21,069 nt of DNA, taken from the NCBI GenBank assembly GCA_039208735.1, contig JBCCQY010000169.1, positions 1-21,069 of the forward strand, in the 5' to 3' direction. This stretch comes from Myxococcota bacterium. Lineage in GTDB: Bacteria; Myxococcota_A; UBA796; GCA-2862545. Below are positions 346 to 20,927 of the stretch, one piece after another. The translations under genes and the position numbers were made by a program. The stretch's first letter is position 1. The number at the start of each line of letters is the position of its first letter. The notes beneath the pieces were generated by a model. That model did not search any database. It saw nothing but the letters and a program-made list of their open reading frames with translations, and was not told the DNA's origin.

Positions 346-355
346 TCCGGATTGC

Positions 356-376
356 TATCGCAATCGGGTTGCAGTA
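356..376. promoter_or_regulatory. Putative Fur/Zur-family operator upstream of tldD
   Basis: TATCGCAAT-CGG-GTTGCAGTA, an imperfect palindrome with the same GCAAY-N3-RTTGC core as 5413-5431 and 7364-7386; about 45 bp upstream of ATG 421. Confidence 0.5.
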
Positions 377-420
377 CCGTGGCGGAACTGCGAGTTCCAC
401 TTTCCCATAGGAGAACCTGC

Positions 421-1965
421 ATGTCCGAACCCACTCGCCGCCGCGTACTCCAAGTTACTGCGGGTGGCTTTGCGGCCCTCTCGATGCCGGGCTTTCTCGC
501 CGCGTGTGCGAAAGACGGGCCCATCTCCTCTGCCAACGGTCCTCTGCCGACCGACCCTTTCCTCGCCTGGTTCGGCATTGACGCCGATATGATCCGCCGC
601 GTGCTCGCAGAACTTGGCTCTCGAGGTGCGGATCACGGTGAGTTGTTCTTCCAGCACTCCCGGTCCTCATCGCTCTCCATGGAAGACGGGCGCATCGGTC
701 GCGCCTTCACTTCCATCGATCAAGGGGTCGGCCTTCGAGTCGTGGTGGGAGATCAGGTTGGCTACGCCTACACCGAGGACTTGACGGAAGGCGCGATGCG
801 CGAGGCGGCACGCACCGCTGCAGCCATTGCCCAAGGCGCGGCGCGCTCGGCCCCCACCGACCTCACGCCGCACGCGCTTGGCAACCGGTATCAGCTCGAT
901 GTGCCGTGGTCCGAGGTGGCCATCGCCGACAAGCTCGATCTCGTCCGGCGTACCGAGGCGGCAGCTCGTGCGAAGGACCCGTCGATCGAGAAGGTCAGCG
1001 TCTACTTGAGCGACGGTGAGGAGCGTGTGCTCGTCGCCGACATGCGTGGCAACCTTGTGATCGATGAGCGGCCAAGCTCCCGCCTCGGCGTTCGCATTAC
1101 GGCTCGCCGCGGCGAGGACGTACAGTCCAACGGAAGTACCCTCGCGGGACGCCGTGGCATCCAGTGGTTCGACGACAGCCGGGTGGACCAGGTGTGTCAG
1201 GAAGCCTGCGACCGGACGATGGTGCTGTTTGAAGCGGTGCGGCCCAAGGCCGGTGAATGGCCTGTCGTGCTGGCCGCAGGCGCCAGCGGAATTCTGCTGC
1301 ACGAGGCCATTGGGCACGGCATGGAGGCCGACTTCAACCGCAAGGGAATCTCGATCTATGCCGACATGATCGGCAAGAAGGTCGCTCCGGATTTCGTCAC
1401 CGTGGTGGACGAAGGGACCCAGCCGGGTGAGCGCGGCGCCTTGAACGTCGACGATGAAGGCACGCCGGCCGGTCGCACCTTGCTCGTCGAAGACGGCGTG
1501 TTGCGTTCCTTCCTACACGACCGCATTAGTGCGAAGCATTACGGCGTTTCCCCCACCGGCTCAGGACGCCGCCAGTCGTTCCGACATGTGCCGATGCCGC
1601 GCATGCGGTCGACCTACATGGAAAATGGTCCGCACACCGTCGACGAGATGATCGCGACGGTGGAGTACGGCATCGTCGCCGAGACCTTTACCAACGGGCA
1701 GGTCAACATCGGCGCCGGGGACTTCACCTTCTTCATCAAGAACGGGTGGCTCATCGAAGGCGGCAAGAAGACCGCCCCCATCAAGGACGTCAACATCATC
1801 GGGAACGGTCCCGAAGCCCTTCGCAACGTCTCGATGGTCGCGAGTGACCTCAAGCTCGACACCGGTGGTTGGACCTGCGGCAAGAACGGCCAGGGGGTTC
1901 CCGTCAGTCAAGGCATGCCCAGCGTGCTGGTTTCCAAGTTGAATGTAGGGGGCAGCGATGCATGA
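421..1965 (+). CDS. tldD: TldD-family metalloprotease (catalytic subunit) with twin-arginine/lipoprotein-like signal
   Basis: SD AGGAGA before ATG 421. Motifs GVGLRV, LLHEAIGH (HExxxH), DDEG, GSGRRQ, PMPRM and CGKNGQ. N-terminus TRRRVL...LAAC. Confidence 0.93.
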   Translation: MSEPTRRRVLQVTAGGFAALSMPGFLAACAKDGPISSANGPLPTDPFLAWFGIDADMIRRVLAELGSRGADHGELFFQHSRSSSLSMEDGRIGRAFTSIDQGVGLRVVVGDQVGYAYTEDLTEGAMREAARTAAAIAQGAARSAPTDLTPHALGNRYQLDVPWSEVAIADKLDLVRRTEAAARAKDPSIEKVSVYLSDGEERVLVADMRGNLVIDERPSSRLGVRITARRGEDVQSNGSTLAGRRGIQWFDDSRVDQVCQEACDRTMVLFEAVRPKAGEWPVVLAAGASGILLHEAIGHGMEADFNRKGISIYADMIGKKVAPDFVTVVDEGTQPGERGALNVDDEGTPAGRTLLVEDGVLRSFLHDRISAKHYGVSPTGSGRRQSFRHVPMPRMRSTYMENGPHTVDEMIATVEYGIVAETFTNGQVNIGAGDFTFFIKNGWLIEGGKKTAPIKDVNIIGNGPEALRNVSMVASDLKLDTGGWTCGKNGQGVPVSQGMPSVLVSKLNVGGSDA

Positions 1966-3292
1966 CAAGGAAGGCGCCGCCTGGCTCAACGACCGTGCTC
2001 AACAGGCCCTGCAGTTCGCTCTCAACGCCGGCGCAGCCGACGTCTGGGTTTCGGCCACCCGCCAGCGCGAGGTCGATCTGGAGATGCGTGAGGGCACGCT
2101 CGAGAAGGTTCAGGAGGCCACAAGCCGAGGCCTCTCGCTCCGGGTTTGGGTTGGGGGCCGCTATGGGGCTCACAACACCACCGATCTCCGTGCCGACCGT
2201 CTCGAATCCTTCGTGCGCAGCGCCGTTGAGCTGACCGGAGCCTTGGAGCCCGACCCCGACCGACAGATTCCCGACCCCTCACTGTTTGAAGGGCGTTCGG
2301 ACGTCGATTTGGAGCTGCTCGATCCGCGCGTCTCGGAACTGACGCCAGAACAACGCGTGGCCTGGCTCCGTGCGATGCAGGAGGAGGTCCAAGGGACCCC
2401 CAAACTCATCAGCGCGAACAGCAGTGTCTCGTCGGGACAAGGCATGTCGGTCGCCGTGAGCAGCAACGGGTTTTCCGGCAGCACAGAGTCGAGTTCGATT
2501 TGGCTTAGCACTTCGCTGACACTTCAGGATGAAGGTGACAAACGCCCCGAAGGTGGATTCTGGGCCGGGGGCCGCCACGTCTCGGACCTCCCGGAGGCCG
2601 CAGCCGTCGCCAAGCAGGCGGTCCAGTGGGCATCGGAACGCGTGGGCTCCGGCAAAGGCAAGACGGCCAACACCACCATGATCGTCCATCCCCGCGCCGG
2701 GGGCCGGCTCGTGAGAGGACTCCTCCGGCCTGCCCAGGGTGGAAGCGTGCACCAAGGCCGCTCCATGTGGAGAGACCGCCTCGGTAAAGCTGTGATCAGT
2801 CCTCGACTCGAGGTCATCGACGATCCGCTCGTGGTCCGTGGGCTTTCCTCGAGGCCCTACGACAACGAAGGCATTGCGGCCAAGCCTCTGCCGTTGCTTC
2901 GCGACGGCGCCCTCCACAACCTCTACCTGTCCACGACCTACGCCAAGAAGCTCAGCATGACGCCCACCACGGGGAGTCCAAGCAACCAGGTCATCACGCC
3001 AGGCAAGCGCGATCTGGAAGCCCTCATCGGCGCGACATCCCGTGGCTACCTGGTCACGGGCTGGCTGGGCGGCAACATGGACCCCACGACGGGCGACTTC
3101 TCTTATGGGGTACGCGGGTTTGCCATCGAGAATGGTCGACGCGCCGGCTCCGTCGGCGAGATGAACATCACCGGCAACCTCCTTTCCATCTTCGAACGGC
3201 TGGCCGAGGTCGGTAGTGATCCGTGGCCCTACGGTTCGCTGCGCTCGCCCTCGCTCGTCTTCGAGAACGTTCAGTTCAGCGGCGTCGGCTGA
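1958..3292 (+). CDS. pmbA: TldE/PmbA-family protein (non-catalytic partner)
   Basis: Overlaps the tldD stop. Motifs DDP, YDNEG, TGDFSYG and EMNITGN; no HExxxH. Confidence 0.9.
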   Translation: MHDKEGAAWLNDRAQQALQFALNAGAADVWVSATRQREVDLEMREGTLEKVQEATSRGLSLRVWVGGRYGAHNTTDLRADRLESFVRSAVELTGALEPDPDRQIPDPSLFEGRSDVDLELLDPRVSELTPEQRVAWLRAMQEEVQGTPKLISANSSVSSGQGMSVAVSSNGFSGSTESSSIWLSTSLTLQDEGDKRPEGGFWAGGRHVSDLPEAAAVAKQAVQWASERVGSGKGKTANTTMIVHPRAGGRLVRGLLRPAQGGSVHQGRSMWRDRLGKAVISPRLEVIDDPLVVRGLSSRPYDNEGIAAKPLPLLRDGALHNLYLSTTYAKKLSMTPTTGSPSNQVITPGKRDLEALIGATSRGYLVTGWLGGNMDPTTGDFSYGVRGFAIENGRRAGSVGEMNITGNLLSIFERLAEVGSDPWPYGSLRSPSLVFENVQFSGVG

Positions 3293-3693: not shown

Positions 3694-5283
3694 TCAGTTT
3701 GCGATGGCGAACTCGGCCTGAAACGCAGTCCGTTCCTCACCCGTCTGCGCCATTTCGATGACCCGTTGGGCGGCGCTTAGAATGCCTTGCCGAGCCGAGT
3801 CTTCGTAGCTGCGCAAACGGAAGCGGAGCGCCCGAAGCAGCTCCAGGCCCTGCCAGTAGCGCCAGAACCCATCGGACCGTAGCGCTGCGACGTCACGCAG
3901 TCCGGCCTCGACCAGCGCGGCGGGCTGAACGGCAATAACCCGCTCCACCAACTCCTCTGGGAGCTGGTCGGCAAACTCGATCGTCCACCAGGCAAGGGAG
4001 ACCCCGAGCTCGCGCTGGTGCGTGGGCAAGTGGCCAGGGTCGACCGATGACGCGTTCTCGATGACCCACCCGGCGCACTTCACCCAGTACTCCAGGCAAG
4101 CCTCCATGGTCGGCGCAAACCAGTCGGCCTTCACCGAAGGACGTCGTGCCATCTCCTTCCAAATCTGAAGTTGCTCTGGATGGGTGACCAGCTGTTTGCC
4201 GCTTGCCGCTAAGCCACCAATGCGTGGCTCCCAAGATCGAACCGTCTCAATTCCCTTCTGGAGTGCGGAGACCGTCGCCTCAACGTTGGTGTCAACCCGC
4301 AAAAGCTGGTGGCTGCGACTCGCTTCCGGGCGTGAGTTGACCAAGCCAAGGAGTTCGGTTGGCCACTCGGTGTCGGGAGCCAAGTAGCAAATCACTAGAT
4401 CACCAGGCTCCGTTGCGGTCTTGGTCTGCCAATTGGTAGCACCGGGAGCCACGTTGAACGAATTGCCCTTGAGACGCCCTTTCAAGCGTAGTTTACCGGC
4501 AGAAACCAGATCCTGAGCAACGCTCTTCAGTCGAACCAACGTTGCCTGCGACGTGAGGTCGAGCACCTGGGGCTGCCAGTCGTGGGTGTTGTGGTGGTGG
4601 TGGTGGTGATCATGGTCGTGGTCGTGATGGTGGTCGTCGTCATCATGCTGGTGATCATGGTCATGATGGTCGTGGTTGTGGTGCCCGCTTGGCTCGTGGG
4701 GTGAATGCTGTGCCTCCAGCGCAACGGCCATCGCTGGCCAGAGCGTCGCCGGAAACGCATCGATGGGGCCTCGGGTCACCGTTGCATGGACGTGGTGGTC
4801 CTCGAGAAACGCCTGAATGTCGGCTGGCAAGACGTCTTCACTCTGCTTGGTCGCCACAATCACATCCGCCACCCGGAGGTGGGTCGGAAGAAGCTCGCCG
4901 TAGTTCACGAGGTTCTGCGACCAGTTCGCCACATCGAGGATGCCCACGATGAGGTGGGGATACGGGACCTTGCGCAAAAAAGCCTTGGTCTCATCTCCAG
5001 AGACGATCCCAAACCCTTCCATCAGGACGACCTGGGTGCCGTTCTCGGCAAGTTCCTGGAGCGCTTGCTGCAGGACCGCCTCATCCTGGCAGGTAAAGCA
5101 GCCGTTGGGCAGGGAGAAGACCTTTGAATGCGGAGTCGTAATCTCGGTCGATCCGCCGGCCTCATTGACCACGATCGCCATCTGATCGGGCGCTTGCCCT
5201 TGCTTGGCCAACCAAGCCGCCAGGTTCATAGCCACAGTCGATTTACCGGCGCCAAACGGGCCGACAAGGGCGATGATCTTCAT
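3694..5283 (-). CDS. COG0523/CobW-like G3E GTPase (metallochaperone) with His-rich linker and extra C-terminal domain
   Basis: Begins MKIIALVGPFGAGKST (Walker A). Also VVNEAG, LPNGCFTC (GCxCC-like), VLMEGFG (Walker B), ADVIVATK, a His/Asp tract and RLKG (CobW_C motif). Confidence 0.85.
   Translation of the reverse strand: MKIIALVGPFGAGKSTVAMNLAAWLAKQGQAPDQMAIVVNEAGGSTEITTPHSKVFSLPNGCFTCQDEAVLQQALQELAENGTQVVLMEGFGIVSGDETKAFLRKVPYPHLIVGILDVANWSQNLVNYGELLPTHLRVADVIVATKQSEDVLPADIQAFLEDHHVHATVTRGPIDAFPATLWPAMAVALEAQHSPHEPSGHHNHDHHDHDHQHDDDDHHHDHDHDHHHHHHNTHDWQPQVLDLTSQATLVRLKSVAQDLVSAGKLRLKGRLKGNSFNVAPGATNWQTKTATEPGDLVICYLAPDTEWPTELLGLVNSRPEASRSHQLLRVDTNVEATVSALQKGIETVRSWEPRIGGLAASGKQLVTHPEQLQIWKEMARRPSVKADWFAPTMEACLEYWVKCAGWVIENASSVDPGHLPTHQRELGVSLAWWTIEFADQLPEELVERVIAVQPAALVEAGLRDVAALRSDGFWRYWQGLELLRALRFRLRSYEDSARQGILSAAQRVIEMAQTGEERTAFQAEFAIAN
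4591..4683 (-). repeat. Low-complexity His/Asp codon tract within the CobW-like gene
   Basis: Encodes HHNHDHHDHDHQHDDDDHHHDHDHDHHHHHH (19 His in 31 residues). Confidence 0.9.
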
Positions 5284-5412
5284 GCGTTCTCCGAGGAAGC
5301 TCGGGCGAGTCCGGAAACGAGCCATTTGCCCAAGGAGCATACATGGGCCCTCGGAGAAACACGAGCCCCCCACCCGCTCCATGCCTCAACCACAGGCTCA
5401 TCAGCACGGTGC

Positions 5413-5431
5413 TATTGCAACCCAGTTGCTA
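5413..5431. promoter_or_regulatory. Putative Fur/Zur-family operator in the divergent CobW/permease promoter
   Basis: TATTGCAAC-CCA-GTTGCTA, with a perfect GCAAC-N3-GTTGC core, between divergent metal-homeostasis genes. Confidence 0.65.
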
Positions 5432-5470
5432 GAAGACTCGAGCCTTTGACATCCAACGGTCGGGAGACCC

Positions 5471-7231
5471 GTGGAGAATTCCGTCTTTGCCTTGATCTTG
5501 GCCGTGGGAGCGTTGTTCGCAGCCCCGGTGCTCCTTTGGATGACTCGCGGCAATGCCTGGCTTCGCGCATCCCTTGACGGCTTCGTCTTGGTGGTGGTGT
5601 CCGGAATCGTATTGCTTCACCTGGGGCCCCATGCCGTGGTCGAGGGCGGACTTCCTGGACTCATCGGAATCATTCTTGGCATGGCGGTGCCCTTGTGGCT
5701 TCATCGGACGGGCCGACGAGGTTTATGGGCGGGCTCCGCGGTGGTGTTGCTCGCGGGCCACGCATTCATCGATGGGGCAGCTTTGGGACTGCTCGATGCA
5801 GGATTGGCCACCGCCGTAGGGGCGGCGGTCATCGCCCATCGCCTGCCTGTCGCCCTCGCTGTGGTGACTGCAGCGCGCCGCCCGTGGCACGGAGCCGTGG
5901 CGCTGGCCGGGTTGGCGGCCCTCACGGTGGTCGGCTTCAATGTGGGCGTTGAGATCGACCCACCGCGCTTTGTTCACGCGCTCACCGAAGGCTTGATCGT
6001 CGGCGGACTGTTTCACGTCGTCATCGCGCACCGAATCGACGCTCCGGCAACGCATGCTCACGACCACGCAGGGCATGCTCACCATGACTGTGGTGGCCAC
6101 GACAAAGAGGAGCGGTGGAATCGGAGGGCCAGCGCAGTGGGAGCGGTGGCGGGCGTCCTCACCGTAACGGGCCTCGCCATGCTGTCTGGAGATTCCGACC
6201 TGCTTGCCCATCTCCAGGCGTCGTGTCGGACCTTCCTATCGCTGACCTTGACGAGCGCTCCCGCATTGATCGTGGGGTTTGTCCTGGCGGGTCTCGTCTC
6301 CGTGTTCCTCAACCCCGCCCGCGCGAGCTGGCTGTCGGGAAGCGTAGGCACCCAGGCCCTTCGAGGGGTTGCGTTTGGGCTCCCCCTCCCCGTCTGCTCC
6401 TGTGGGGTGGTTCCGATGTACCAATCCTTGATTCGAAAGGGTGTACCCATCACCGCAGGATTGGCCTTCCTCGTTGCAACCCCCGAACTCGGAATCGACG
6501 CGGTGCTCCTGTCCGTACCGCTCCTCGGAATTCCCATGACGATTGCGCGTGTCGTTGCTGCGTTCGTCGTCGCGGTCGTGGTCGCCGTCGTCGTAAGTCG
6601 TGGGTTGCCCACCCCTGCGAGTCAGCCCATCGACGCCGACATCATGCTGCAACGTGGGTTTGGGGTGCGCATCCGAGAAGGCCTACGCTACGGTCTCGTC
6701 GAACTCGTCGATCACACCCTGCCTTGGATCTTAGTGGGATTGGTGCTCGCCGCACTGGCAGAGCCGCTACTCGACCACGAGGTTCTTGCCGCGTTGCCTT
6801 CGGTGGCGCAGGTTCCGTTGGCCGCCATGATCGGCGTACCCATCTACGTGTGCGCGTCCGGTGCGACCCCGCTGGCTGCGTTGGCTACGCAGAAGGGTCT
6901 GTCGGCAGGAGCCGCCTTGGCGTTCTTGCTCGCAGGACCGGCCACGAACGTCACGACGTTCGGGATTCTGGCCTCGCTTCACGGACGCCAACTCGCGTTC
7001 CGGTTCGGAATCACGCTCACCATCGCCGCCATCGTGGTGGGATGGACCACCGATGCGATCGGCATCTCGGTACCGGCTCTGACGACGCTCGACGCCCCTC
7101 ACGGGCATCGCTGGGGAGTCCTCGGTGCCGTGTCCGCCGTGGGCCTCGCCGCCCTGACGTTTGGCTCCTTGTGGCGACAAGGCGTACGCGGAATGGTCCG
7201 ACAGCTGACGAACCCCATCCACGTGCATTGA
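5471..7231 (+). CDS. Permease: N-terminal ZIP-like domain + His-rich linker + DUF318 (ArsP/SO_0444-type) domain
   Basis: GTG start after GGGAG; many TM segments. ZIP-like motifs LHLGPHA, GHAFIDG and AHRLP; linker HAHDHAGHAHHD; DUF318 motifs PLPVCSCGVVP, FLVATPE, PIYVCASGATP and AGPATN. Confidence 0.85.
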   Translation: MENSVFALILAVGALFAAPVLLWMTRGNAWLRASLDGFVLVVVSGIVLLHLGPHAVVEGGLPGLIGIILGMAVPLWLHRTGRRGLWAGSAVVLLAGHAFIDGAALGLLDAGLATAVGAAVIAHRLPVALAVVTAARRPWHGAVALAGLAALTVVGFNVGVEIDPPRFVHALTEGLIVGGLFHVVIAHRIDAPATHAHDHAGHAHHDCGGHDKEERWNRRASAVGAVAGVLTVTGLAMLSGDSDLLAHLQASCRTFLSLTLTSAPALIVGFVLAGLVSVFLNPARASWLSGSVGTQALRGVAFGLPLPVCSCGVVPMYQSLIRKGVPITAGLAFLVATPELGIDAVLLSVPLLGIPMTIARVVAAFVVAVVVAVVVSRGLPTPASQPIDADIMLQRGFGVRIREGLRYGLVELVDHTLPWILVGLVLAALAEPLLDHEVLAALPSVAQVPLAAMIGVPIYVCASGATPLAALATQKGLSAGAALAFLLAGPATNVTTFGILASLHGRQLAFRFGITLTIAAIVVGWTTDAIGISVPALTTLDAPHGHRWGVLGAVSAVGLAALTFGSLWRQGVRGMVRQLTNPIHVH

Positions 7232-7363
7232 CGGCCGCTGATGGCGGCATCCCTACCTCCTGACGGGCAGAGTGGTCGCCTCGCGGCCGCCCTCGTCGAC
7301 CCGTCGTATACGACGTAGGTACGGTGAGGTCTTTCGCCTGCGCTAGGGCGGCGCGACACAAGC

Positions 7364-7386
7364 TAAATGCAATTGAATTGCATTTA
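7364..7386. promoter_or_regulatory. Putative Fur/Zur-family operator upstream of the TonB-dependent receptor
   Basis: Perfect 10-3-10 inverted repeat TAAATGCAAT-TGA-ATTGCATTTA, AT-rich in a GC-rich background, immediately before the gene. Confidence 0.8.
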
Positions 7387-7394
7387 CATTTGCG

Positions 7395-9845
7395 ATGCAG
7401 AAAGCTACAGCAGCTTCCATGTTCTTGGGGCTGACAATTGCGTGGTGGTCCATTGTGGCCAGCGGGGCTCCTCCATCGGGCGAAGCGGTGGAGGATGACG
7501 TCACGGACGTGCCCCCGCAGCTGCGCTCCGCCGTCGAACTGCGCTACCCAGCTGAGGCGTCCGACCTGCACGGCGATGTCGAAGTCCATGTGGCGGTGGA
7601 CTCGACGGGTCGGGTGACCGCAGCGGAGGTCGTGTCGGGCGACCCGGTTTTCCATGCGGAAGCAACCCGAGCCGTATCAGAGCTTTTGTTCAGCCCCGCC
7701 ACTCACGGAGGGATTCCCGTGTCGGGGGTGGCGCTCGTCCGACTCCACTTCGCCCCGCCCTTTGACGACGACGACGATGCCATCGAGCGAATCCTGGTCA
7801 TTGGGAACGACGACCGGGACGACACCAAGGCCCGAACCACCCTCGACGAGACGGACCTTGAGCGGGCCGCAGGCGACGACCTCGCCCAAACCGTGGCCCA
7901 GGTGCCCGGCGTGGTGGTGAGCCGCGCCAACGCCGACACGAGCAAGCCCATCATTCGGGGGCAAACCGAACGACGCCTCCTCCTCCTGAACGACGGCATC
8001 CGGCACGAGTCCCAGAAGTGGGGCCCTGACCACGCGCCCGAGATCGACCCGTTTTCCGCGGGCCGTATCAGCGTGGTCAAGGGGGCTGCGGGCACGCGCT
8101 ACGGTCCCGATGCGATCGGTGGCGTCTTGCTCGTGGAGCCTCCACCGATGCGCCGCCAAGCGGGTGTCGGGGGGAAGGTGTTGCTCCAAGGCGCCACGAA
8201 CGGCTTGCGAGGCTACGCTGCCCTGCGTCTCGACGCCGTACCGTCCGATACCAGCCCGTGGTCTTTCCGACTCGAAGGCAACGTGGCCAACGGGGCTACC
8301 CAGCGGTCCCCCTTGTATCTCCTCGGCAATACGGCAAGCCGGAGCTACAACCTCGGGGCGGCGATTCAGCATCAGGCGAACCGCACGACCCTTCGTCTCA
8401 CCTACCGCCGCTACGACCTGCGGTCCGGCGTCTTCTTTGGCGTGGTGGTAGGCACTCCAGACGAGTTCCGCGCGCGTCTCGAGGCCGATCGACCTCCCAC
8501 GGCAGACGCCTGGGTGGTGACGCGGGATTTCCAACGCCCCTACCAGCAGGTGGCACATGACGTTGCTGCCTTGCACCTCGAGCATGAACTCGCGGGGGGT
8601 GGCACGTTCTCAGCCACCTACGCCTTCCAGAACAATCGACGCCTCGAATTCGACTCCGTGCGTCAGAGCATCGATGGCCCGCAATACGACTTCCTGCTGC
8701 GCACCCACTCCATTGACGCGTCGATTGAGCCAGAGCCCCACGACCTACTGGGCGCGGCAGCGCAAACGATGTTCGGCGTACAGGGAATCATTCAGGAAAA
8801 CATCTTCCGCGGCATCGAGCTGCTGCCTAACTACCTCGGTTTTGGGGCCAGCGCGTTCGCAAACGAACGCCTCAATTACGGTCGGTTCGAACTCGATGTA
8901 GGGGCTCGACTCGACCACCTCACGCGTACGGGCTTCCTGTCCGAACTGAGTCTCGAACGAGCCGTACGCGAAGGTGTGGTTGAAGCAGAGGATTGCCCAC
9001 AACCGGTGCTGCGCTTCCGGTGCCCTGGAGCCTGGACTACGGGGTCGGTCTCTCTCGGTGCGATTTGGCGCGCTGTGCCCGACGCCGTCGACGTAAAACT
9101 CGACCTTTCCCAAGCCAACCGCTTCCCCGCCGCCGACGAACTCTACCTGATCGGTTCGGCCCCTTCCTTTCCGGTCTATGCCGTTGGGAATCAGCAACTC
9201 GGTGTGGAGACCACGTGGAATGCCTCTGGCACGCTGGGCCTTCGCCTTCCTGCCATCGAAGGCGAGGTGTCGGGTTGGGGTAGCCTCGTCCAGGACTACA
9301 TCTACTTCGCACCTGCGTTGAATGACAATGGGGAAGTGCGTTTCGACGTCACCCGGCAAGGTACGTTCCCCCGCTACACGTACGCGGCCATCCCCGCCGC
9401 CTTCTGGGGCACCGACGGTCGGCTCTTGCTCGGTCCGACCGGCCAGGTGGGCTTAGAACTTGGCGGGTCCATCGTGCGGTCCCTCGATCGCAGCACCGGG
9501 GCGTTTCTCATTGGCACCCCCCCCGACCGCGGCTTCGTCCAGCTGATCACCCGTCCGTACCTCGGCCCTGGCATGCGCGATGTGCGCCTCGCCGTGCGCG
9601 TGGACGGCGTGGCACGGCAGACCCGCACCGACCTCAACGCCGACTTCGCGCCCCCCCCACCGGCCTACGCATTGCTTGGCGCGTCCGCCGAGATTGCGGT
9701 GAAGCTCGGCTCTCGCCAGGTCCGCATCGGGATGGAAGGCCACAATTTGCTGAACGCCCGCTACCGCGACTATACGAGCTTACTCCGCTACTACGCCGAC
9801 TTTCCTGGTCGTGACGTGCGGGTGCGGCTCGGTTTCGATCTCTGA
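7395..9845 (+). CDS. TonB-dependent receptor with N-terminal TonB_C domain (alternative start 7419)
   Basis: Signal peptide; TonB_C-like segment YPAEA..GDVEV.VAVDSTGRV; plug motifs KPIIRG, WGPDHAPEIDP and KG..RYGPDAIGG; barrel end NLLNARY...PGR. Confidence 0.92.
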   Translation: MQKATAASMFLGLTIAWWSIVASGAPPSGEAVEDDVTDVPPQLRSAVELRYPAEASDLHGDVEVHVAVDSTGRVTAAEVVSGDPVFHAEATRAVSELLFSPATHGGIPVSGVALVRLHFAPPFDDDDDAIERILVIGNDDRDDTKARTTLDETDLERAAGDDLAQTVAQVPGVVVSRANADTSKPIIRGQTERRLLLLNDGIRHESQKWGPDHAPEIDPFSAGRISVVKGAAGTRYGPDAIGGVLLVEPPPMRRQAGVGGKVLLQGATNGLRGYAALRLDAVPSDTSPWSFRLEGNVANGATQRSPLYLLGNTASRSYNLGAAIQHQANRTTLRLTYRRYDLRSGVFFGVVVGTPDEFRARLEADRPPTADAWVVTRDFQRPYQQVAHDVAALHLEHELAGGGTFSATYAFQNNRRLEFDSVRQSIDGPQYDFLLRTHSIDASIEPEPHDLLGAAAQTMFGVQGIIQENIFRGIELLPNYLGFGASAFANERLNYGRFELDVGARLDHLTRTGFLSELSLERAVREGVVEAEDCPQPVLRFRCPGAWTTGSVSLGAIWRAVPDAVDVKLDLSQANRFPAADELYLIGSAPSFPVYAVGNQQLGVETTWNASGTLGLRLPAIEGEVSGWGSLVQDYIYFAPALNDNGEVRFDVTRQGTFPRYTYAAIPAAFWGTDGRLLLGPTGQVGLELGGSIVRSLDRSTGAFLIGTPPDRGFVQLITRPYLGPGMRDVRLAVRVDGVARQTRTDLNADFAPPPPAYALLGASAEIAVKLGSRQVRIGMEGHNLLNARYRDYTSLLRYYADFPGRDVRVRLGFDL

Positions 9846-9868
9846 CCAGAGAAGAGGAGAATGTACCA

Positions 9869-10432
9869 ATGATGCGATTCACTTGGCTTCCCGTGGCGAT
9901 GCTCGCGATCGGTTGCGTCGAGACCGCTCCTGAAGAGAATGTCCAGGAAGTCTTCACGACCGTGGCCCTGACCTTCACTCCCCAGAGTGGTGGTGCCGCC
10001 ATCATGGCGGACTTCCTGGATCTGAACGGCGAAGTCACCATCGACGATATTGCGTTGACCAACGGTGAGACCTACGACCTCGGCGTCGAGTTCTTCAACG
10101 AGCTCGAAGATCCCATTGAGGACGTCACGCTCGAGATCATGGACGAAGATGATGAGCACCAGGTGTTCTTCACCGGCGGCGCCATCGACTCCATCGTGAC
10201 CCACACCTACTCCGACATGGACGGGGGCGGGCTCCCGATCGGTCTCGACAACGAAATTGCGGCCACCAACACCGGCAGCGATACGTTTACGGTTACGCTT
10301 CGCCACCTGCCGCCTGAAGACGGAACCGTCGTGAAGGTTGCCGGCCTCGAAGACACCGTGGCCGCCTCGGGCATCGGCGCCATCGCGGGTGACACCGACA
10401 TCACGGCTGACTTCGACCTGACGGTCGAGTAG
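9869..10432 (+). CDS. Acidic lipoprotein, putative TBDR-associated metal-binding partner
   Basis: SD GAGGAG; lipobox IGC; motifs EVFTTV, EDDEHQVFF, PIGL and TLRH; starts 23 bp after the TBDR stop. Confidence 0.85.
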   Translation: MMRFTWLPVAMLAIGCVETAPEENVQEVFTTVALTFTPQSGGAAIMADFLDLNGEVTIDDIALTNGETYDLGVEFFNELEDPIEDVTLEIMDEDDEHQVFFTGGAIDSIVTHTYSDMDGGGLPIGLDNEIAATNTGSDTFTVTLRHLPPEDGTVVKVAGLEDTVAASGIGAIAGDTDITADFDLTVE

Positions 10433-11661: not shown

Positions 11662-12387
11662 ATGTGGATCGCGATGAGTTCGCTGGCCGTCGCCGCAGAG
11701 TTGACGGTGGGATTGAGCTATCAAAACCTACAGTTGCTGGATCAACACCAGTCTCCGCTGCCTTACGCGGGACACGCCCCGGGAGGGCGCCTTCGCTATG
11801 ACAGTGGCGCGCCGGTCGTTCGACCGTTCGCCGACGGTGAACTGGGGGTGGGATCGAGCTTTGCCCCAAGTGCGACAGACCGGGGAACCCTCTTCGTTCG
11901 GGCGCGACTCGAAGGCGGTGCCCTTGGGCGGCTTGCCTCGATCGGAGCAACGTCGCTGTGGGTCGGTGGAGCGGCCCATGCACGCTTCGACTACATCGAT
12001 GGCATCGCCTACCACCCCTGGGGACTGGGCCAAACCTCACTCGATGCGGCCTTCCGCCTCGAAGGTCCCCCTCGCCCGTGGCGATGGTGGGTCGAAGCAA
12101 GCCTTCCCGTCGTCGGGAGTCTCAGTCGGCACAACTATAGTTTAGACCCCGTCGATCCCAATCTGGCTGACCTGCCTGCTTTCTTCGACCAGGGAACGCG
12201 ACTTGTCACCGTGGCCCGCGCCCCGTCGGCTCGGGCCCGGTTTGCGCTGTTTCACGATACGGACAAACTGGATTGGATGCTGGGGCTTCGCTCCGAGTGG
12301 CTGACCTATGGCCTACCGAATCGACTGACAGCCCTTTCTTGGACCCTCGATGCGGGGCTCCGCTTCGGACGGGGAGGTGATGCATGA
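11662..12387 (+). CDS. Putative outer-membrane beta-barrel protein
   Basis: SD GGAGGT; short signal peptide (AVA-A); amphipathic strands; ends LDAGLRF plus a short tail. Confidence 0.65.
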   Translation: MWIAMSSLAVAAELTVGLSYQNLQLLDQHQSPLPYAGHAPGGRLRYDSGAPVVRPFADGELGVGSSFAPSATDRGTLFVRARLEGGALGRLASIGATSLWVGGAAHARFDYIDGIAYHPWGLGQTSLDAAFRLEGPPRPWRWWVEASLPVVGSLSRHNYSLDPVDPNLADLPAFFDQGTRLVTVARAPSARARFALFHDTDKLDWMLGLRSEWLTYGLPNRLTALSWTLDAGLRFGRGGDA

Positions 12388-13358
12388 TCGCCCTGCTTCA
12401 GCTCGTCGGATGCACGGTTTTCCCAGCGCCAGACGCTTCGCCAACCGCTTCCTTCGACGCACTCTGGGCGGACTTTGATGCCCACTACGGAGGGTTTGTG
12501 GTTCGGCCGGACCTGGATTGGGATGAGGCCTACGATACGCTTCGCCCCGAGGTTCGCGACGACATGACAGATGCGGAACTCCTCGCTGTGATGCAAGATC
12601 TGCTCCGGCCCCTGAACGACGACCACGTCTTTCTATTCGATTTCAAAGGCGACTTTTGGTCCTCGTATACGCCGGCCCGCGAAGAAGAGGAACTCGACCT
12701 CCCCTTCATTCGCGACACCCTGCTGCGCGATCCGGTCGATGAGCGCTCCCTTGTGTGGGGATGGCTCGAAGAAGGCATCGGCTACATTTTCATTCGGGAC
12801 TTCTCCACCTTAGGTTCGGTCGGTGAATTAAGTCAGGCGCTCGAAACGTTCGCCAATGCCGACGGCGTGGTGGTGGATATTCGAGATAGCCCAGGCGGCA
12901 CAGACAGTATCGCGGCCGAGCTGGCGGGTTGCTTCGCCACCGAACCCCAGCCCTTCCTGACCATCCGAATCCGCAACGGCCCGGCCCGCGATGACTTTTC
13001 AGAGCCCATTCGGTGGTCGCTTGAGCCCGCAGACTGTGGGTACACCGGTCCGGTGGCCCTCGTGACCAACACCCGAACGGTGAGCGCCGGCGAGTCCTTT
13101 ACGTTGGCGATGACCGAATTGCCCCAGGTGGTCCACGTGGGCGAGACGACGACAGGTTCGTTTTCGGATGTGGTGACCCGCGACCTACCAAACGGCTGGC
13201 TCTACTCCCTGTCGATCGGCGATTGGCGAGACGCCCGCGACGTCAGTCATGAAGGGATTGGCATCATTCCCACCATCGAGGCGATCAATACGCTTGAGGC
13301 GTTGAGTGAAGGCCGGGACCTCGCGCTGGAAGGCGCGGTGAACGCTCTTCTTCGCTGA
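12384..13358 (+). CDS. S41-family peptidase lipoprotein (tricorn C1 + S41 domain)
   Basis: ATGA overlap with the upstream gene; LVGC lipobox; motifs LNDDH, IGYI, DIRDSPGG, TVSAGE (catalytic Ser), GETTTG, LPNGW and EGIGIIP. Confidence 0.9.
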   Translation: MIALLQLVGCTVFPAPDASPTASFDALWADFDAHYGGFVVRPDLDWDEAYDTLRPEVRDDMTDAELLAVMQDLLRPLNDDHVFLFDFKGDFWSSYTPAREEEELDLPFIRDTLLRDPVDERSLVWGWLEEGIGYIFIRDFSTLGSVGELSQALETFANADGVVVDIRDSPGGTDSIAAELAGCFATEPQPFLTIRIRNGPARDDFSEPIRWSLEPADCGYTGPVALVTNTRTVSAGESFTLAMTELPQVVHVGETTTGSFSDVVTRDLPNGWLYSLSIGDWRDARDVSHEGIGIIPTIEAINTLEALSEGRDLALEGAVNALLR

Positions 13359-16070: not shown

Positions 16071-17159
16071 TCAGCAAGCCGGGACGTCCTGCGACACGGT
16101 TGTGGCAAGCGCAAACAGCTCGGCAAGGGAGGCCTTCTCAATGCGCCGCGCCGAACGAAGGCCCTCAAGCCACGTGGGCTTCGCCTGAATGGCATTGGCA
16201 AGAGGCCCGCGGAGGGCCAACCCTGTCTTCGTGTCGAGATCGAGTTTAAGGAGCGCCAAGAAGACGAGCAACGCCACCAGGGGGTCAAGGTACCTCCCAG
16301 GTTGTGCGTCGGCGCAGAGCCATTGCTGGACCCTTGCTGCGTCCGTGGTCATTTGGGCGGCGCGGAACATCGCGTGCCCCAGGCGTCCCATGGCCTCCAA
16401 CTTCCGAACTGGCCGGCAGAACGTCCCCAATACCGGGGCGCGGCCGAGGTACAACGGGGTGAGTGCCAGCCGATGGTCGATGCCCGGAGCCCGACCGACT
16501 CCGCAGACGAACAGCGTCACAGAACCCCGCCCCACCCGTCCCGCCTCCCCAACGAACCACTCCCAGAGCGTGGGGAACGAACCGAGTTCAGGCTGTCGAG
16601 CCACCGCGTGCCGCCACACTTGCGCATTGGGGAGCACCACCACCACATCTCGTCCGGTTGCGGCGGCGCGTAGTCCAAGCGAGACAGCCGCGAACGGGGT
16701 GAGCGCCGCCGCGCCATCCGTCTCTCCCCACACCACCACCCACTCCGGTGAGACGCGATGCCACACCGCGTGGCGATGGCCCGCGACGATGATGGTTCGA
16801 CCCATGGACCGCTGCCGCTCGGCGAGATCCGTCCAGGGCGCATCCACCGCGTACACCCGTCCCTTGCGGAGCTGCATTTGCAGATCTGGCCAGAGCATGC
16901 CGAGCAGGAGCCTCGGGTTTTCGGGCCCTTCGTCATCACGAACCACGGATCGACGGGGAGGCCATACCCCCACCCGTTCCTCTCCAGGGCCCGCGATCTG
17001 GACCACCCCTTGAAACGGTTCGGGCATGGGCACGCTAAGCGTGGCGGAATGGGGACCTGGTGGGGCGCCGAGGTCAACGGTGCGGGGTCCGTTCGGCGTC
17101 AGTCCCACCACCCAATGCTGCCGTCCGTCGCCCGTGGCGATCACGTCTCCTTGTTGCAT
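16071..17159 (-). CDS. Hypothetical protein resembling a degenerate F1-ATPase alpha/FliI-type subunit lacking Walker A
   Basis: Strong SD AAGGAGG before ATG 17159. Colinear segments [27 protein letters not shown]...[19 protein letters not shown] and RVQQWL...[16 protein letters not shown]. Confidence 0.6.
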   Translation of the reverse strand: [362 protein letters not shown]

Positions 17160-17185
17160 CGACCCTCCTTTGTGGCGGATCTTGC

Positions 17186-18620
17186 TCAATACAGGTAGCG
17201 ATCCGGCGGGGCGCAGCTCGGCGCGGGCGCCTCGACCAACGTAGCAAGGTCGGAAAGGAGCTGAGCCTCGACCTCCAAACCTGGGTCCTCGAGCTGCATC
17301 GCCGCCGTCGAGGCCCGCGTCTGCGCCGCTCCTACGACCGTGAGGGCTTCCTCGGCCGACTGGCCCCCCTCACACATGGCGGCCGCTGCATCGAGGGCGA
17401 GGATTTCGTCACGGAGGATGGCCATCTTGAAGACCCCAAGGTCGTCCGCCATCACGCCGTCGATCTGGTGCGCGGTACCGAGCTGGTACTCAAGCGGAGC
17501 GCGGTCTTCGATTCGCTTATTGCCTGGCGTCGTATAGGCAAGCCGAAGCACCGCGGCCTCCGAAATCCGCTCCTCTCCAAAGGCCAGAGGCTCGAGAGGT
17601 TCAAAGAGTGCACCAATCCCACCGTTGTTGCGGGAAGCGAACAGCGCACTCGCCCCCAAGGAAATGCGATCTCCGTCGAGGGGCACGGCGAAGGGCTCGA
17701 TGAGGGTCCAGTCCGAGGCAGCCTCAGCGTCAGCGACGAAGTCGTACGCGAGAGGGGTCGTAATGAGGGAGAAGTCCCGACCGAACACCCGATCGACGTC
17801 CTCCTCGTCGAAGAGGGTGAAGGCATGGCCACCGCGCACCTTCGCGATGGCATCGAGGAGTTCGGAGCCCATGTCCGCTTCCCACCCCTACCACCGTGAT
17901 GCCGTGGCCGACCTCTGCGCCCTGACGGGCGAGGCCAAGAAAGGACTCTCGCGAAGTTTCTCCGGTGTTGGGTTGAACGTCGGTCATCAAGAATACGCGG
18001 CCGGGGTTCGCAGCCCGATCGAGCAAGCCGTAGGCCTTCCGCATGCCCGACTCCATGTCGGTGCTACCACCCGTATCCAAACCACGGAGAATCCTCAGGG
18101 CATCATCACGACCGCGCCGATCCATTGCTTTGAGGCGCATCCGGGTCTTGGCAGAAGAACCATACGTGACGATGCCCAGCTCGTCGAGCTCATCAAGCTG
18201 GGGCACCATCGCTTCGGCGGCAGCAACGACCCGTGCGAGGCGCCCTCCCATCGACCCACTGATGTCGATGGTGAACACAAACGACAGAGGCGGCCGCTCG
18301 ATGTCCGTAAGGGCGGTCGTAAACCCGATGTGCGCCAGTAAGGCTGGCTCCGATCCGTCGACCGGACGAACGAACGCGGCTCGAACTTCAGGACAGAGGG
18401 TTTGTGCGCAGGATGTCCCAGTAAACGGCAAATCGTGTTCCGAAAGAAGACCCTCGGCAGCATAGTGCTCGGTGCTGGGGATTTCCCCCGCTCGAATCAG
18501 TTCTGGAACAAGGTTGGCGTCCTGCAGCCCGCCTGGATTCACGCCGAGCGAGCCCGAATAGAGAACCGAGCTTTAGCAACCCACCAAGCTTAAGGCCCAC
18601 AAGACGAGATTTGGTGCCAT
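17186..18620 (-). pseudogene. VWA-domain (YfbK-like) lipoprotein with in-frame stop and frameshift
   Basis: Reads MAPNLVLWALSLVGC*SSVL... with TAA at 18575-18573. MIDAS DISGSM, GGSTD and MTDVQPN are present. A +1 frameshift near 17879-17880 joins VGVG to ADMGSELL. Confidence 0.85.
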
Positions 18621-18695: not shown

Positions 18696-19469
18696 CTAGG
18701 GTGTTGTGGAAGCCGAGGCCGTCGCCTGTTGCCAGTTCTGCACAGGATGCAACTGCCCGCGGATATCGCCATAAAACGTCTGACTCGCCGTGTGGATGTT
18801 GTAGTAGAGCTGTCCTTCCCCCGCGACAACCGCCATGCCAGCAATCGTGCGAACGCGATCGTTGGGGATGGCCCAGTTGATCGGACAGCCGCCCGTGAAC
18901 GCCCCTACGACCCCCGAACTGTCTTCGATGACGCGCTCGAGGTCTCGGTTCGTGATCTCGTAGCTTAGAACGCCATCGGCAAAATACTCGCTGACGTCAC
19001 CGGTCTTGCCGAAGTCCACGATGATGGGGCCGAGCATCCCTGGCTTTCCACAGTGGATGTGTGCCATCACGATTTCTTTGGGATCGATGTCCGTCACCGC
19101 GAGGTGGGCGTAGGCTCGCGAGAAGTCCTTGGTGAAGGCGACCGTGCCATGACCTCGTCCAGGACGTTCTTCGCGAGGTGTAGGAGGTTTAGTCGACTTA
19201 AAGACACTCGGTGCGGCGGCCGGCGTGTCCGACTCTTCATCGGCTTCCTGCTGGGGACTAAGGTACGCCTCAAAGACAAGTCCAATCTGGGTTCCGGCTT
19301 TGGGGTTCAGCGGGTAGTCGATCAGGGGTGCAACCTCGGCCCGAGGCTCAACGACCGCCCCATGGGCGTGACCATGGGCTTCATCGGGGTTGGCATCGGC
19401 CGGCGAAGCGGCACATCCCGTGACGAGTCCAAGGCAAACAGCAACGATCAAAGGCAGCGTTCGGCTCAC
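18696..19469 (-). CDS. CHRD-domain lipoprotein with His-rich N-terminal patch
   Basis: SD GGAGGT before GTG 19469; VTGC lipobox; HGHAHG; CHRD motifs LSPQQE, AHIHCG..G..GPI, YYNIHT and GDIRGQL. Confidence 0.85.
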   Translation of the reverse strand: MSRTLPLIVAVCLGLVTGCAASPADANPDEAHGHAHGAVVEPRAEVAPLIDYPLNPKAGTQIGLVFEAYLSPQQEADEESDTPAAAPSVFKSTKPPTPREERPGRGHGTVAFTKDFSRAYAHLAVTDIDPKEIVMAHIHCGKPGMLGPIIVDFGKTGDVSEYFADGVLSYEITNRDLERVIEDSSGVVGAFTGGCPINWAIPNDRVRTIAGMAVVAGEGQLYYNIHTASQTFYGDIRGQLHPVQNWQQATASASTTP

Positions 19470-19526
19470 GTAGACCTCCGAGGTCTCAAAAGGGGGTTCG
19501 CAGGGCACGCCTCCTGCATACCCAGT

Positions 19527-19562
19527 AATGACAACTACGTCAATATTGATATAATCGTCATT
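19527..19562. promoter_or_regulatory. AT-rich 36-bp imperfect palindrome (two TGAY-N6-GTCA units) upstream of the CHRD gene
   Basis: AATGACAACTACGTCAAT|ATTGATATAATCGTCATT, with 14 of 18 positions paired across the centre. Confidence 0.6.
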
Positions 19563-19892
19563 TATAGAGCCGCATGCCGCCGCTCCCTTGGGGTTTTGCT
19601 CGAGAGGGACTACGAGACCGTTGGACCTAAGAACCCCAACAGCAATGTCGACGCGACGCTGCGCAGCTGCTCCGGACGCCCTCTCGAATGGCGAAAGACT
19701 CGGTCGCAAGGTGTGGCTTCGTCGAGGAGTTCCCGTGATACGGCGCGCCTTCCCTCCGACCAAGTCCACGCCGGTAGGCAACCTTCGCTCGCACTCAGCC
19801 CAGCCACTCGACGTTCCTGATTGAACGCTCCGGATCAGAGCCTCCCGTTCAGATTTCCGCCCCGTCGAGGAGTAGCAAGGTACTTCGCGGGC

Positions 19893-20927
19893 ATGTCCTC
19901 TCCAGAGATTCCCGCCGCCGATTATGCAGCGTTGCTCAACGTGCTCAAGCAGCGAGTTCGCCAAGCGCAGATCAAGGCCGTGCTGTCGGCGAATCGAGAG
20001 CTTGTGCTGCTTTACTGGACCATTGGCCGCGAGATTGTGGCTCGGCAGGAGACGCAAGGCTGGGGAGCCAAGGTCATCGATCGGCTTTCCGGCGATCTGC
20101 GAAAGGCGTTTCCCGAGATGAAGGGATTTTCCACCCGAAATCTCAAGTACATGCGAAAACTCGCGATGGCGTGGCCCGAGGAGGACTTTGTGCAACAGGC
20201 CGTTGCACAACTTCCGTGGGGACACAACGTCCGCCTCCTTGAAAAGGTCAAAGAGCCCACAGTCCGCAAGTTCTACGTCGAGCAAACTGCCCTGAACGGA
20301 TGGTCTCGAGACATGCTTGTCCTGAACATTGAACGGCGACTCCACGAGCGCCAGGGCGTCGCTCCCAACAACTTCCAGGCGACCTTGCCACCCGCTCAGT
20401 CCGATCTGGCCGAGCACATCATCAAAGATCCCTATGTCTTTGACTTTCTCACCCTGGCTGACGATGCCAGAGAGCGCGATCTAGAGTCCGGGCTCGTCGC
20501 CCACATCCGAGATTTTCTCATCGAACTGGGCCTCGGTTTCGCCTTCGTAGGACGTCAGATCCATCTCGATGTCGGTGGCGAAGATTTCTACCTCGACCTG
20601 CTCTTCTACCATTTGCACCTGCGCTGCTTCGTGGTGGTCGAGTTGAAGGTCGGAGAATTCACTCCAGAACATGTTGGAAAGCTGAACTTCTATCTGTCTG
20701 CCGTCGACGACCTCATGCGGCACGAAACGGACCAGCCCACCATCGGGCTTCTGCTCTGCAAGTCGCGAAGCGACGTTGTGGTGGAGTACGCCCTCCGCGA
20801 TCTGATGAAGCCCATCAGCATCGCCAATTGGGAGACGAGGCTTATGGAGTCTCTCCCTGCCGAGCTGGAGGGCCGACTCCCCACCATCGAACAACTCGAA
20901 GCAGAACTTCGAGAGACCGAGGAGTGA
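19893..20927 (+). CDS. yhcG: YhcG/DUF1016-family PD-(D/E)XK nuclease
   Basis: Motifs VLLYWTIG, WGAKVI, GFSTRNLKYM, LPWGH, KDPYVFDFL, ELGLGFAFVGRQ, DLLFYH..LRC..VVELK and GKLNFY. Confidence 0.92.
   Translation: MSSPEIPAADYAALLNVLKQRVRQAQIKAVLSANRELVLLYWTIGREIVARQETQGWGAKVIDRLSGDLRKAFPEMKGFSTRNLKYMRKLAMAWPEEDFVQQAVAQLPWGHNVRLLEKVKEPTVRKFYVEQTALNGWSRDMLVLNIERRLHERQGVAPNNFQATLPPAQSDLAEHIIKDPYVFDFLTLADDARERDLESGLVAHIRDFLIELGLGFAFVGRQIHLDVGGEDFYLDLLFYHLHLRCFVVVELKVGEFTPEHVGKLNFYLSAVDDLMRHETDQPTIGLLLCKSRSDVVVEYALRDLMKPISIANWETRLMESLPAELEGRLPTIEQLEAELRETEE

Follow-up and report, generated by a model that had tools for sequence, protein, structure and literature searches.

The alpha subunit of F1 is among the most conserved proteins and normally occurs only in a ring with beta. 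Loss of nucleotide binding has been described in the V/A-type ATPases, where the truncated loop of the B subunit prevents ATP binding according to the available part of a preprint (bioRxiv 10.64898/2026.10.01.756066), and the available part of a second study (PMC7159879) proposes that, in multicellular bacteria, cellular enzymes have inactive copies serving as decoys. Here we describe P0001, an open reading frame in the window (the whole stretch of DNA that was analysed, 21,069 nt), which an earlier note had read as an orphan, degenerate F1-alpha homologue. Relatives and structure bear this out, and place it in a conserved family rather than as a one-off relic. P0001 almost certainly belongs to a small F1-alpha-derived family of single origin that has kept the three-domain fold and lost the nucleotide site, and whose members are solitary accessory genes present in at most a few percent of the Myxococcota genomes searched, always with an intact F1 present.

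Table 1 Features of P0001 and its surroundings in the window, and direct neighbours of family members in the seven hosts
Feature	Position	Strand	Remarks
ORF P0001, degenerate F1-alpha homologue (pseudo-ATPase), stand-alone	16071..17159	minus	362 aa, stop-free; coding score, family HMM, fold
Shine-Dalgarno-like AAAGGAGG (AAGGAGG)	17164..17171	minus	4 nt 5' of ATG 17159
Alternative in-frame start, TTG 17189	17160..17189	minus	+10 residues; overlaps VWA stop codon
N-terminal beta-barrel remnant	16980..17159	minus	begins near alpha residue 48; no N-terminal helices or first strands
Truncated P-loop	16836..16856	minus	strand 102-105, DAP (three residues) and helix 109-118 replace GDRQTGKT
Walker B strand DVVVVL	16626..16649	minus	ends Pro-Asn, not Asp-Asp; profile alignment and residue counts
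Alpha-type C-terminal helical bundle, residues ~258-357	16089..16388	minus	best-modelled part, block pLDDT 80-96
VWA lipoprotein gene, broken here	17186..18620	minus	upstream; local neighbour, not conserved partner
Direct neighbour, G000 (host of P0001)			VWA lipoprotein gene
Direct neighbour, G002			DUF4419
Direct neighbours, L017			Gly-rich protein and PrcB_C protein
Direct neighbours, G687			integrase-like and ferritin-like genes
Direct neighbours, G718			two proteins without Pfam match
Direct neighbours, G771			CAP and AMP-binding genes
Direct neighbours, G784 halves			ECF sigma factor and hybrid kinase

The reading frame and its kinship with F1-alpha

The intact frame and strong ribosome-binding site claimed for P0001 both hold. 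Under a codon model trained on the host genome its score (0.065) is the top of the six frames, the other five ranging from -0.018 to -0.319, and lies toward the bottom of the host-gene range (training genes: mean 0.13, 5th percentile 0.046). AAGGAGG at the same distance precedes 212 of the 248,201 ATGs in the host genome, and ATG 17159 is preferred over TTG 17189 because no Shine-Dalgarno-like motif was seen 5' of the TTG. The window shows no differences from sequencing run X1, its possible source. In source records, family members are labelled 'hypothetical protein' or are nameless.

On its own, the P0001 sequence has no match in Pfam, PDB or NCBIfam and scores a non-significant 2.5 bits against an alpha HMM (best of 100 shuffles, 2.2), hence the link to alpha is made through relatives and structure. 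A family HMM from which P0001 and P0002 were withheld recovers P0001 at 141.6 bits (shuffles <=3.9), and the leave-out family HMM gives alphas 66-102 bits, FliI 53 and betas 37-38. By hhalign, the family profile matches the host alpha (probability 75.5, E 2.4e-5, 360 columns), against a probability of only 19.7 for the host beta, and its top 56 rows in the PDB are all alpha or alpha-derived. The six peptides quoted earlier as alpha-like are all present and colinear (residues 82-101, 140-162, 168-176, 205-217, 275-281 and 294-309), and the profile alignment puts them on the alpha segments named. The structure model of P0001 aligns over residues 1-359 to 1fx0_A 48-501 with all three domains present, so the profile and structure comparison that had been suggested finds the F1/V1/FliI superfamily fold (beta-barrel, RecA-like core, helical C-domain), with alpha closer than beta, FliI or V-type and a C-terminal domain of alpha type. 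The exception is P0026, whose best NCBIfam match is FliI. P0001 shares only about 13-17% identity with alpha.

In a quick 39-row tree, a branch with SH-aLRT 99 separates the 12 family rows from the rest, and family plus alpha split from beta plus FliI (SH-aLRT 96). With six rows removed (P0001, P0008, the G718 copy and three near-duplicate references), the family branch receives 100 and the family plus alpha split 95, and a grouping of the family with FliI is rejected (p-AU 0.017). The family is placed outside all alphas sampled, which may be caused by long-branch attraction; the P0001 branch is the longest in the 39-row tree (2.24). The best family score against curated cut-offs of 484-554 bits is 86, and against TIGR00962 (cut-off 484 bits) the best member reaches 75 bits while P0001 has no match. 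The family fails functional-AtpA tests, yet descends from alpha.

Residues were counted, in host alpha numbering, across 13 near-full-length members aligned to five alphas, leaving aside the fragments P0002, P0004 and P0009 and the G784 halves. G174, K175, T176, Q206 and K207 are kept in none of the 13, confirming the reported loss of Walker A: GDRQTGKT with its Lys and Thr is absent throughout the family, and the predicted model of P0001 has just three residues between the strand and helix flanking the P-loop. The reported loss of the acidic Walker B residues is correct for P0001, which lacks both, but does not extend to the whole family, where D267 is kept in 8/13 members and D268 in 2/13. 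S342 is kept in a single member. Judging by these residues, the family is presumably unable to bind ATP at the alpha site.

Gaps are concentrated in alpha residues 1-19 (87%), which we take to be the delta-binding N-terminus, 200-219 (60%), presumably the non-catalytic interface helix, 280-299 (45%), assumed here to be the central PGRE loop, 360-379 (65%), presumably the arginine-finger segment, and 400-419 (53%), which we take to be the gamma-facing hairpin; residues 60-79, 240-259 and 420-499 are only 0-14% gapped. A protein with this pattern would be expected to fit the alpha3beta3 ring poorly. The arginine-finger segment (SVSRVG) is gapped in 13/13 members, a result that depends on the alignment, as another alignment has Arg at the arginine-finger column in 3/10, namely P0001 and two of nine others. 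Alpha-invariant positions kept in all 13 members (G112, G149, D154, G162, P245, G259, G317 and S318) are mostly fold-shaping residues, largely Gly and Pro. In the structure model, residues 33-61 have pLDDT <50, and PF00306 is matched by the relatives P0007, P0009 and P0023.

Distribution, neighbourhoods and rate of change

In genome samples that overlap and include many incomplete genomes, true members were found in 2/182 genomes of the class of P0001 (four other matches there are alternate alphas or FliI, not members), 1/401 genomes of a phylum sample in a stricter first look, 2/301 genomes of a second class, 3/91 of one genus and 1/73 of one family, with none in two further samples (0/113 and 0/89). 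Six host genomes are 8.8-12.8 Mb in size; five have an atpA above the curated cut-off and the other (G718) has an alpha with canonical motifs. The host of P0001 carries an intact atpA-G-D cluster on a separate contig (C164), in line with the claim that the gene stands outside any atp operon, and no atp genes occur in the flanks of the seven hosts (at most about 8-10 kb read, shorter at contig ends). Alternate-type F1Fo operons were seen in relatives, namely G016 (L015 3374-10162), G140 (L016) and G718 (L051, L053, L056 and L058), the last with two extra alpha/beta pairs on top of the ordinary pair.

Family neighbours differ in 7/7 hosts, hence the proposed check for neighbourhood conservation returned none. 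TIGR02996 genes lie near two of the seven loci, no defence island is evident at the seven, and PADLOC, whose models cover systems described by 2023, matched none of 13 proteins (seven members, six neighbours). The G687 member is divergent from an Arm-DNA-binding integrase-like gene (L046 10552-11934, plus strand), hinting at mobile insertion. The G784 member is split over two contigs (L073 487-1200 and L074 9374-9895, both minus), its N-half continuing into an unrelated tail that includes an Arg run and a hydrophobic segment; this is either a misassembly or a real disruption.

The placement of P0001 directly downstream of a VWA lipoprotein gene is right as to position, as the two share a strand and the VWA gene ends 26 nt before P0001, but the VWA gene is not intact. 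It has a Pfam VWA match (E 2e-11) and a lipoprotein-like signal at its start, with a TAA (18575-18573) immediately following the lipobox Cys and a shift of frame near 17878. In run X2, one contig of a near relative is a base short at 17878, and a second crosses the junction between VWA gene and ORF with gene order kept. Elsewhere in the window, a metal-handling cluster (3694-10432) holds a His-rich CobW-type GTPase, an ArsP_1 permease with a His-rich linker, a TonB-dependent receptor bearing a TonB_C domain at its N-terminus, and a small acidic ORF resembling a lipoprotein gene. Ordinary genes at 352-3292 (plus), 12384-13358 (plus), 18696-19820 (minus) and 19821-20927 (plus) are a TldD/PmbA pair, an S41 peptidase, a CHRD-domain protein and a YhcG/DUF1016 nuclease.

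The host genome also encodes a fusion protein in which an ECF sigma factor is joined to ankyrin repeats and to a shortened F1-beta-like domain (G000 contig C9 42491-44593, plus; L019 6708-8597), the last of which retains the Walker A motif GGPFVGKT. This domain occurs in 8/182 class genomes, the full architecture having been read in one of the eight, and a literature search found no description of the fusion, which is possibly an ATP-sensing sigma factor. Taken with the P0001 family, it may hint that both F1 subunits have been recruited as non-motor modules in Myxococcota.

The family evolves far faster than atpA of the same genomes: the congeners G000 and G002 share 29% identity in the family protein vs 87% in atpA, and G687 and G784 share 51-65% vs 86%. 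The suggested ortholog and dN/dS comparison found orthologs, and was read in pairs of genus g161, pairs with P0001 being too distant. Crude Nei-Gojobori counts gave dN (0.29-0.47) below dS (0.88-1.38) in all five g161 comparisons, figures which are rough bounds because dS is near saturation; second codon positions are 67-80% identical and third positions 43-50%. Constraint is therefore shown in the closest pairs.

Possible uses of a solitary alpha

We tentatively entertain the idea that members are horizontally spread F1-alpha mimics that act where the rotary ATPase is a surface of conflict: they would draw off a phage or competitor factor as decoys, or cap beta in a dominant-negative way. The most likely single use, put forward more tentatively still, is a decoy for an F1-directed factor. 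A member would show the outer shape of alpha (barrel and C-terminal bundle), a phage protein, toxin or inhibitor that otherwise targets the real ATP synthase would bind it, and the member would neither join the alpha3beta3 ring nor turn over ATP. We draw this from the accessory-gene pattern taken with the decoy proposal in the available part of PMC7159879. The dead site (K175, T176, Q206 and K207 in 0/13 members), the poor ring fit (five alpha segments 45-87% gapped), fast change under constraint and accessory-gene behaviour (rarity, different neighbours in every host, an integrase-like gene beside one) are consistent with a decoy. Its binding partner is however purely putative, with no PADLOC match and no evident defence island, and the literature searched yielded no report of F1Fo inhibition by a phage protein. 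A decoy should also preserve the target surface, yet P0001 is barely alike to alpha in sequence (about 13-17%), and patchiness and fast change also fit other accessory roles or weak selection. Alternatively, the protein may have become a scaffold for a new ligand or partner that has nothing to do with ATP synthase, the F1 fold being history only; this is unlikely but deserves weight given the eroded interfaces and family-specific residues such as Arg at alpha P145 (13/13) and Trp at alpha Y292 (11/13). It is countered by the lack of a conserved neighbour in seven hosts, of a fused form among longer proteins (weak evidence) and of a new catalytic-looking motif, the alpha-invariant positions kept in 13/13 being mostly Gly/Pro.

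We also consider it rather unlikely that the family is a dominant-negative F1 regulator, binding free beta or an assembly intermediate through barrel and core and blocking assembly or wasteful ATP hydrolysis under stress. Retention of all three domains, barrel residues L66, G85 and G92 in 11-12/13 members, an ordinary alpha in all six host genomes and the Arg at the arginine-finger column in one alignment speak for it, but the AVGQK helix, RRPPGRE loop, SVSRVG segment and gamma-facing hairpin are mostly deleted. An F1 assembly mimic or inhibitor, as raised previously, is weakened since beta- and gamma-contact loops are among the most deleted parts, and presence in about 1-3% of genomes, unlinked to atp operons, would be unlike a housekeeping regulator. 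That at least this copy is a functionless relic in slow decay, left by an atpA duplication or by an alternate ATPase operon since lost, is improbable: one clade extends over two classes with deletions common to its members, frames stay open at about 20-45% identity between subgroups, second codon positions outlast third positions in the closest pairs, and P0001 has a strong Shine-Dalgarno motif and a confident fold. These outweigh its longest branch (2.24), the two lesions in its upstream neighbour, a run X2 contig (depth 4.3) lacking a base at 16136 where another X2 contig is gap-free, and the two-contig G784 copy with its N-half running into unrelated sequence. Very improbable is a part in the VWA-linked system proposed in the earlier note, or a partnership with the ECF sigma-ankyrin-degenerate-beta fusion, a candidate largely refuted by neighbourhoods. 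The VWA gene is close, on the same strand and in retained order in a near relative, and the eight genomes with the fusion's domain include both P0001-family carriers; but none of the six other hosts has a VWA direct neighbour (a VWA-looking ORF, judged by eye, lies about 7 kb from the G784 member), the VWA gene is broken here, and its product has a lipoprotein signal vs no signal peptide by eye in P0001. Six genomes with the fusion's domain have no family member, G687 and G718 have a member and no fusion by the query used, and co-occurrence in G000 and G002 is not independent because they are congeners.

If a solitary alpha lacking a nucleotide site is under selection, this subunit would be able to fold and to be retained in a different role; on the mimic reading, an ATP synthase subunit would have a pseudo-enzyme copy that stands alone. 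As a decoy, the family could serve as bait for natural antagonists of bacterial ATP synthase, with F1 as a bacterial conflict target; as a beta cap, it would be a new class of F1 inhibitor. Either reading provides natural deletion variants for the study of F1 assembly and an annotation for an unnamed protein cluster.

Comparison with described ATPases and conflict systems

We regard these proteins as a solid and so far undescribed group of pseudo-enzymes derived from a textbook protein, putative in role; no stand-alone dead F1-alpha is described in the literature found, which was covered by titles and the starts of abstracts and mostly excludes subscription papers. AtpA (TIGR00962, PRK13343; PF00006, PF00306) is about 500 aa long, whereas the family is about 360-460 aa, with a truncated P-loop, a deleted N-terminal region and ring-facing loops, and a solitary position in the genome. 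Alternate (N-type) F1Fo operons carry beta and other subunits, as seen in L015, and the family has none; the alternate alphas here keep a GxxxxGK[ST]-type loop, which the family lacks. The F1-like G1 ATPase of Mycoplasma presumably likewise has beta and other subunits in its operon, unlike the family.

The non-catalytic B subunits of V/A-type ATPases are conserved operon members of the A3B3 ring, and the family is not; it also scores far better to F1-alpha and has a C-terminal bundle of alpha type. Its P-loop resembles the truncated loop of these B subunits as given in the available part of the preprint, although the truncation looks like an independent loss. In the available part of Kaur et al. 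2020 (PMC7159879), the effectors either form a fusion with a vWA-MoxR core or are encoded alongside one. The family has no such conserved core, with no MoxR-type Pfam match among 20 window proteins and no VWA direct neighbour in six other hosts, and the main text of that paper as available contains no occurrence of 'F0F1', 'ATP synthase' or 'RecA'. The family is nevertheless like the inactive-enzyme effectors and iSTAND of the vWA-MoxR ternary conflict systems presented there, in which dead copies of cellular enzymes, including ATPases, are proposed to act as decoys.
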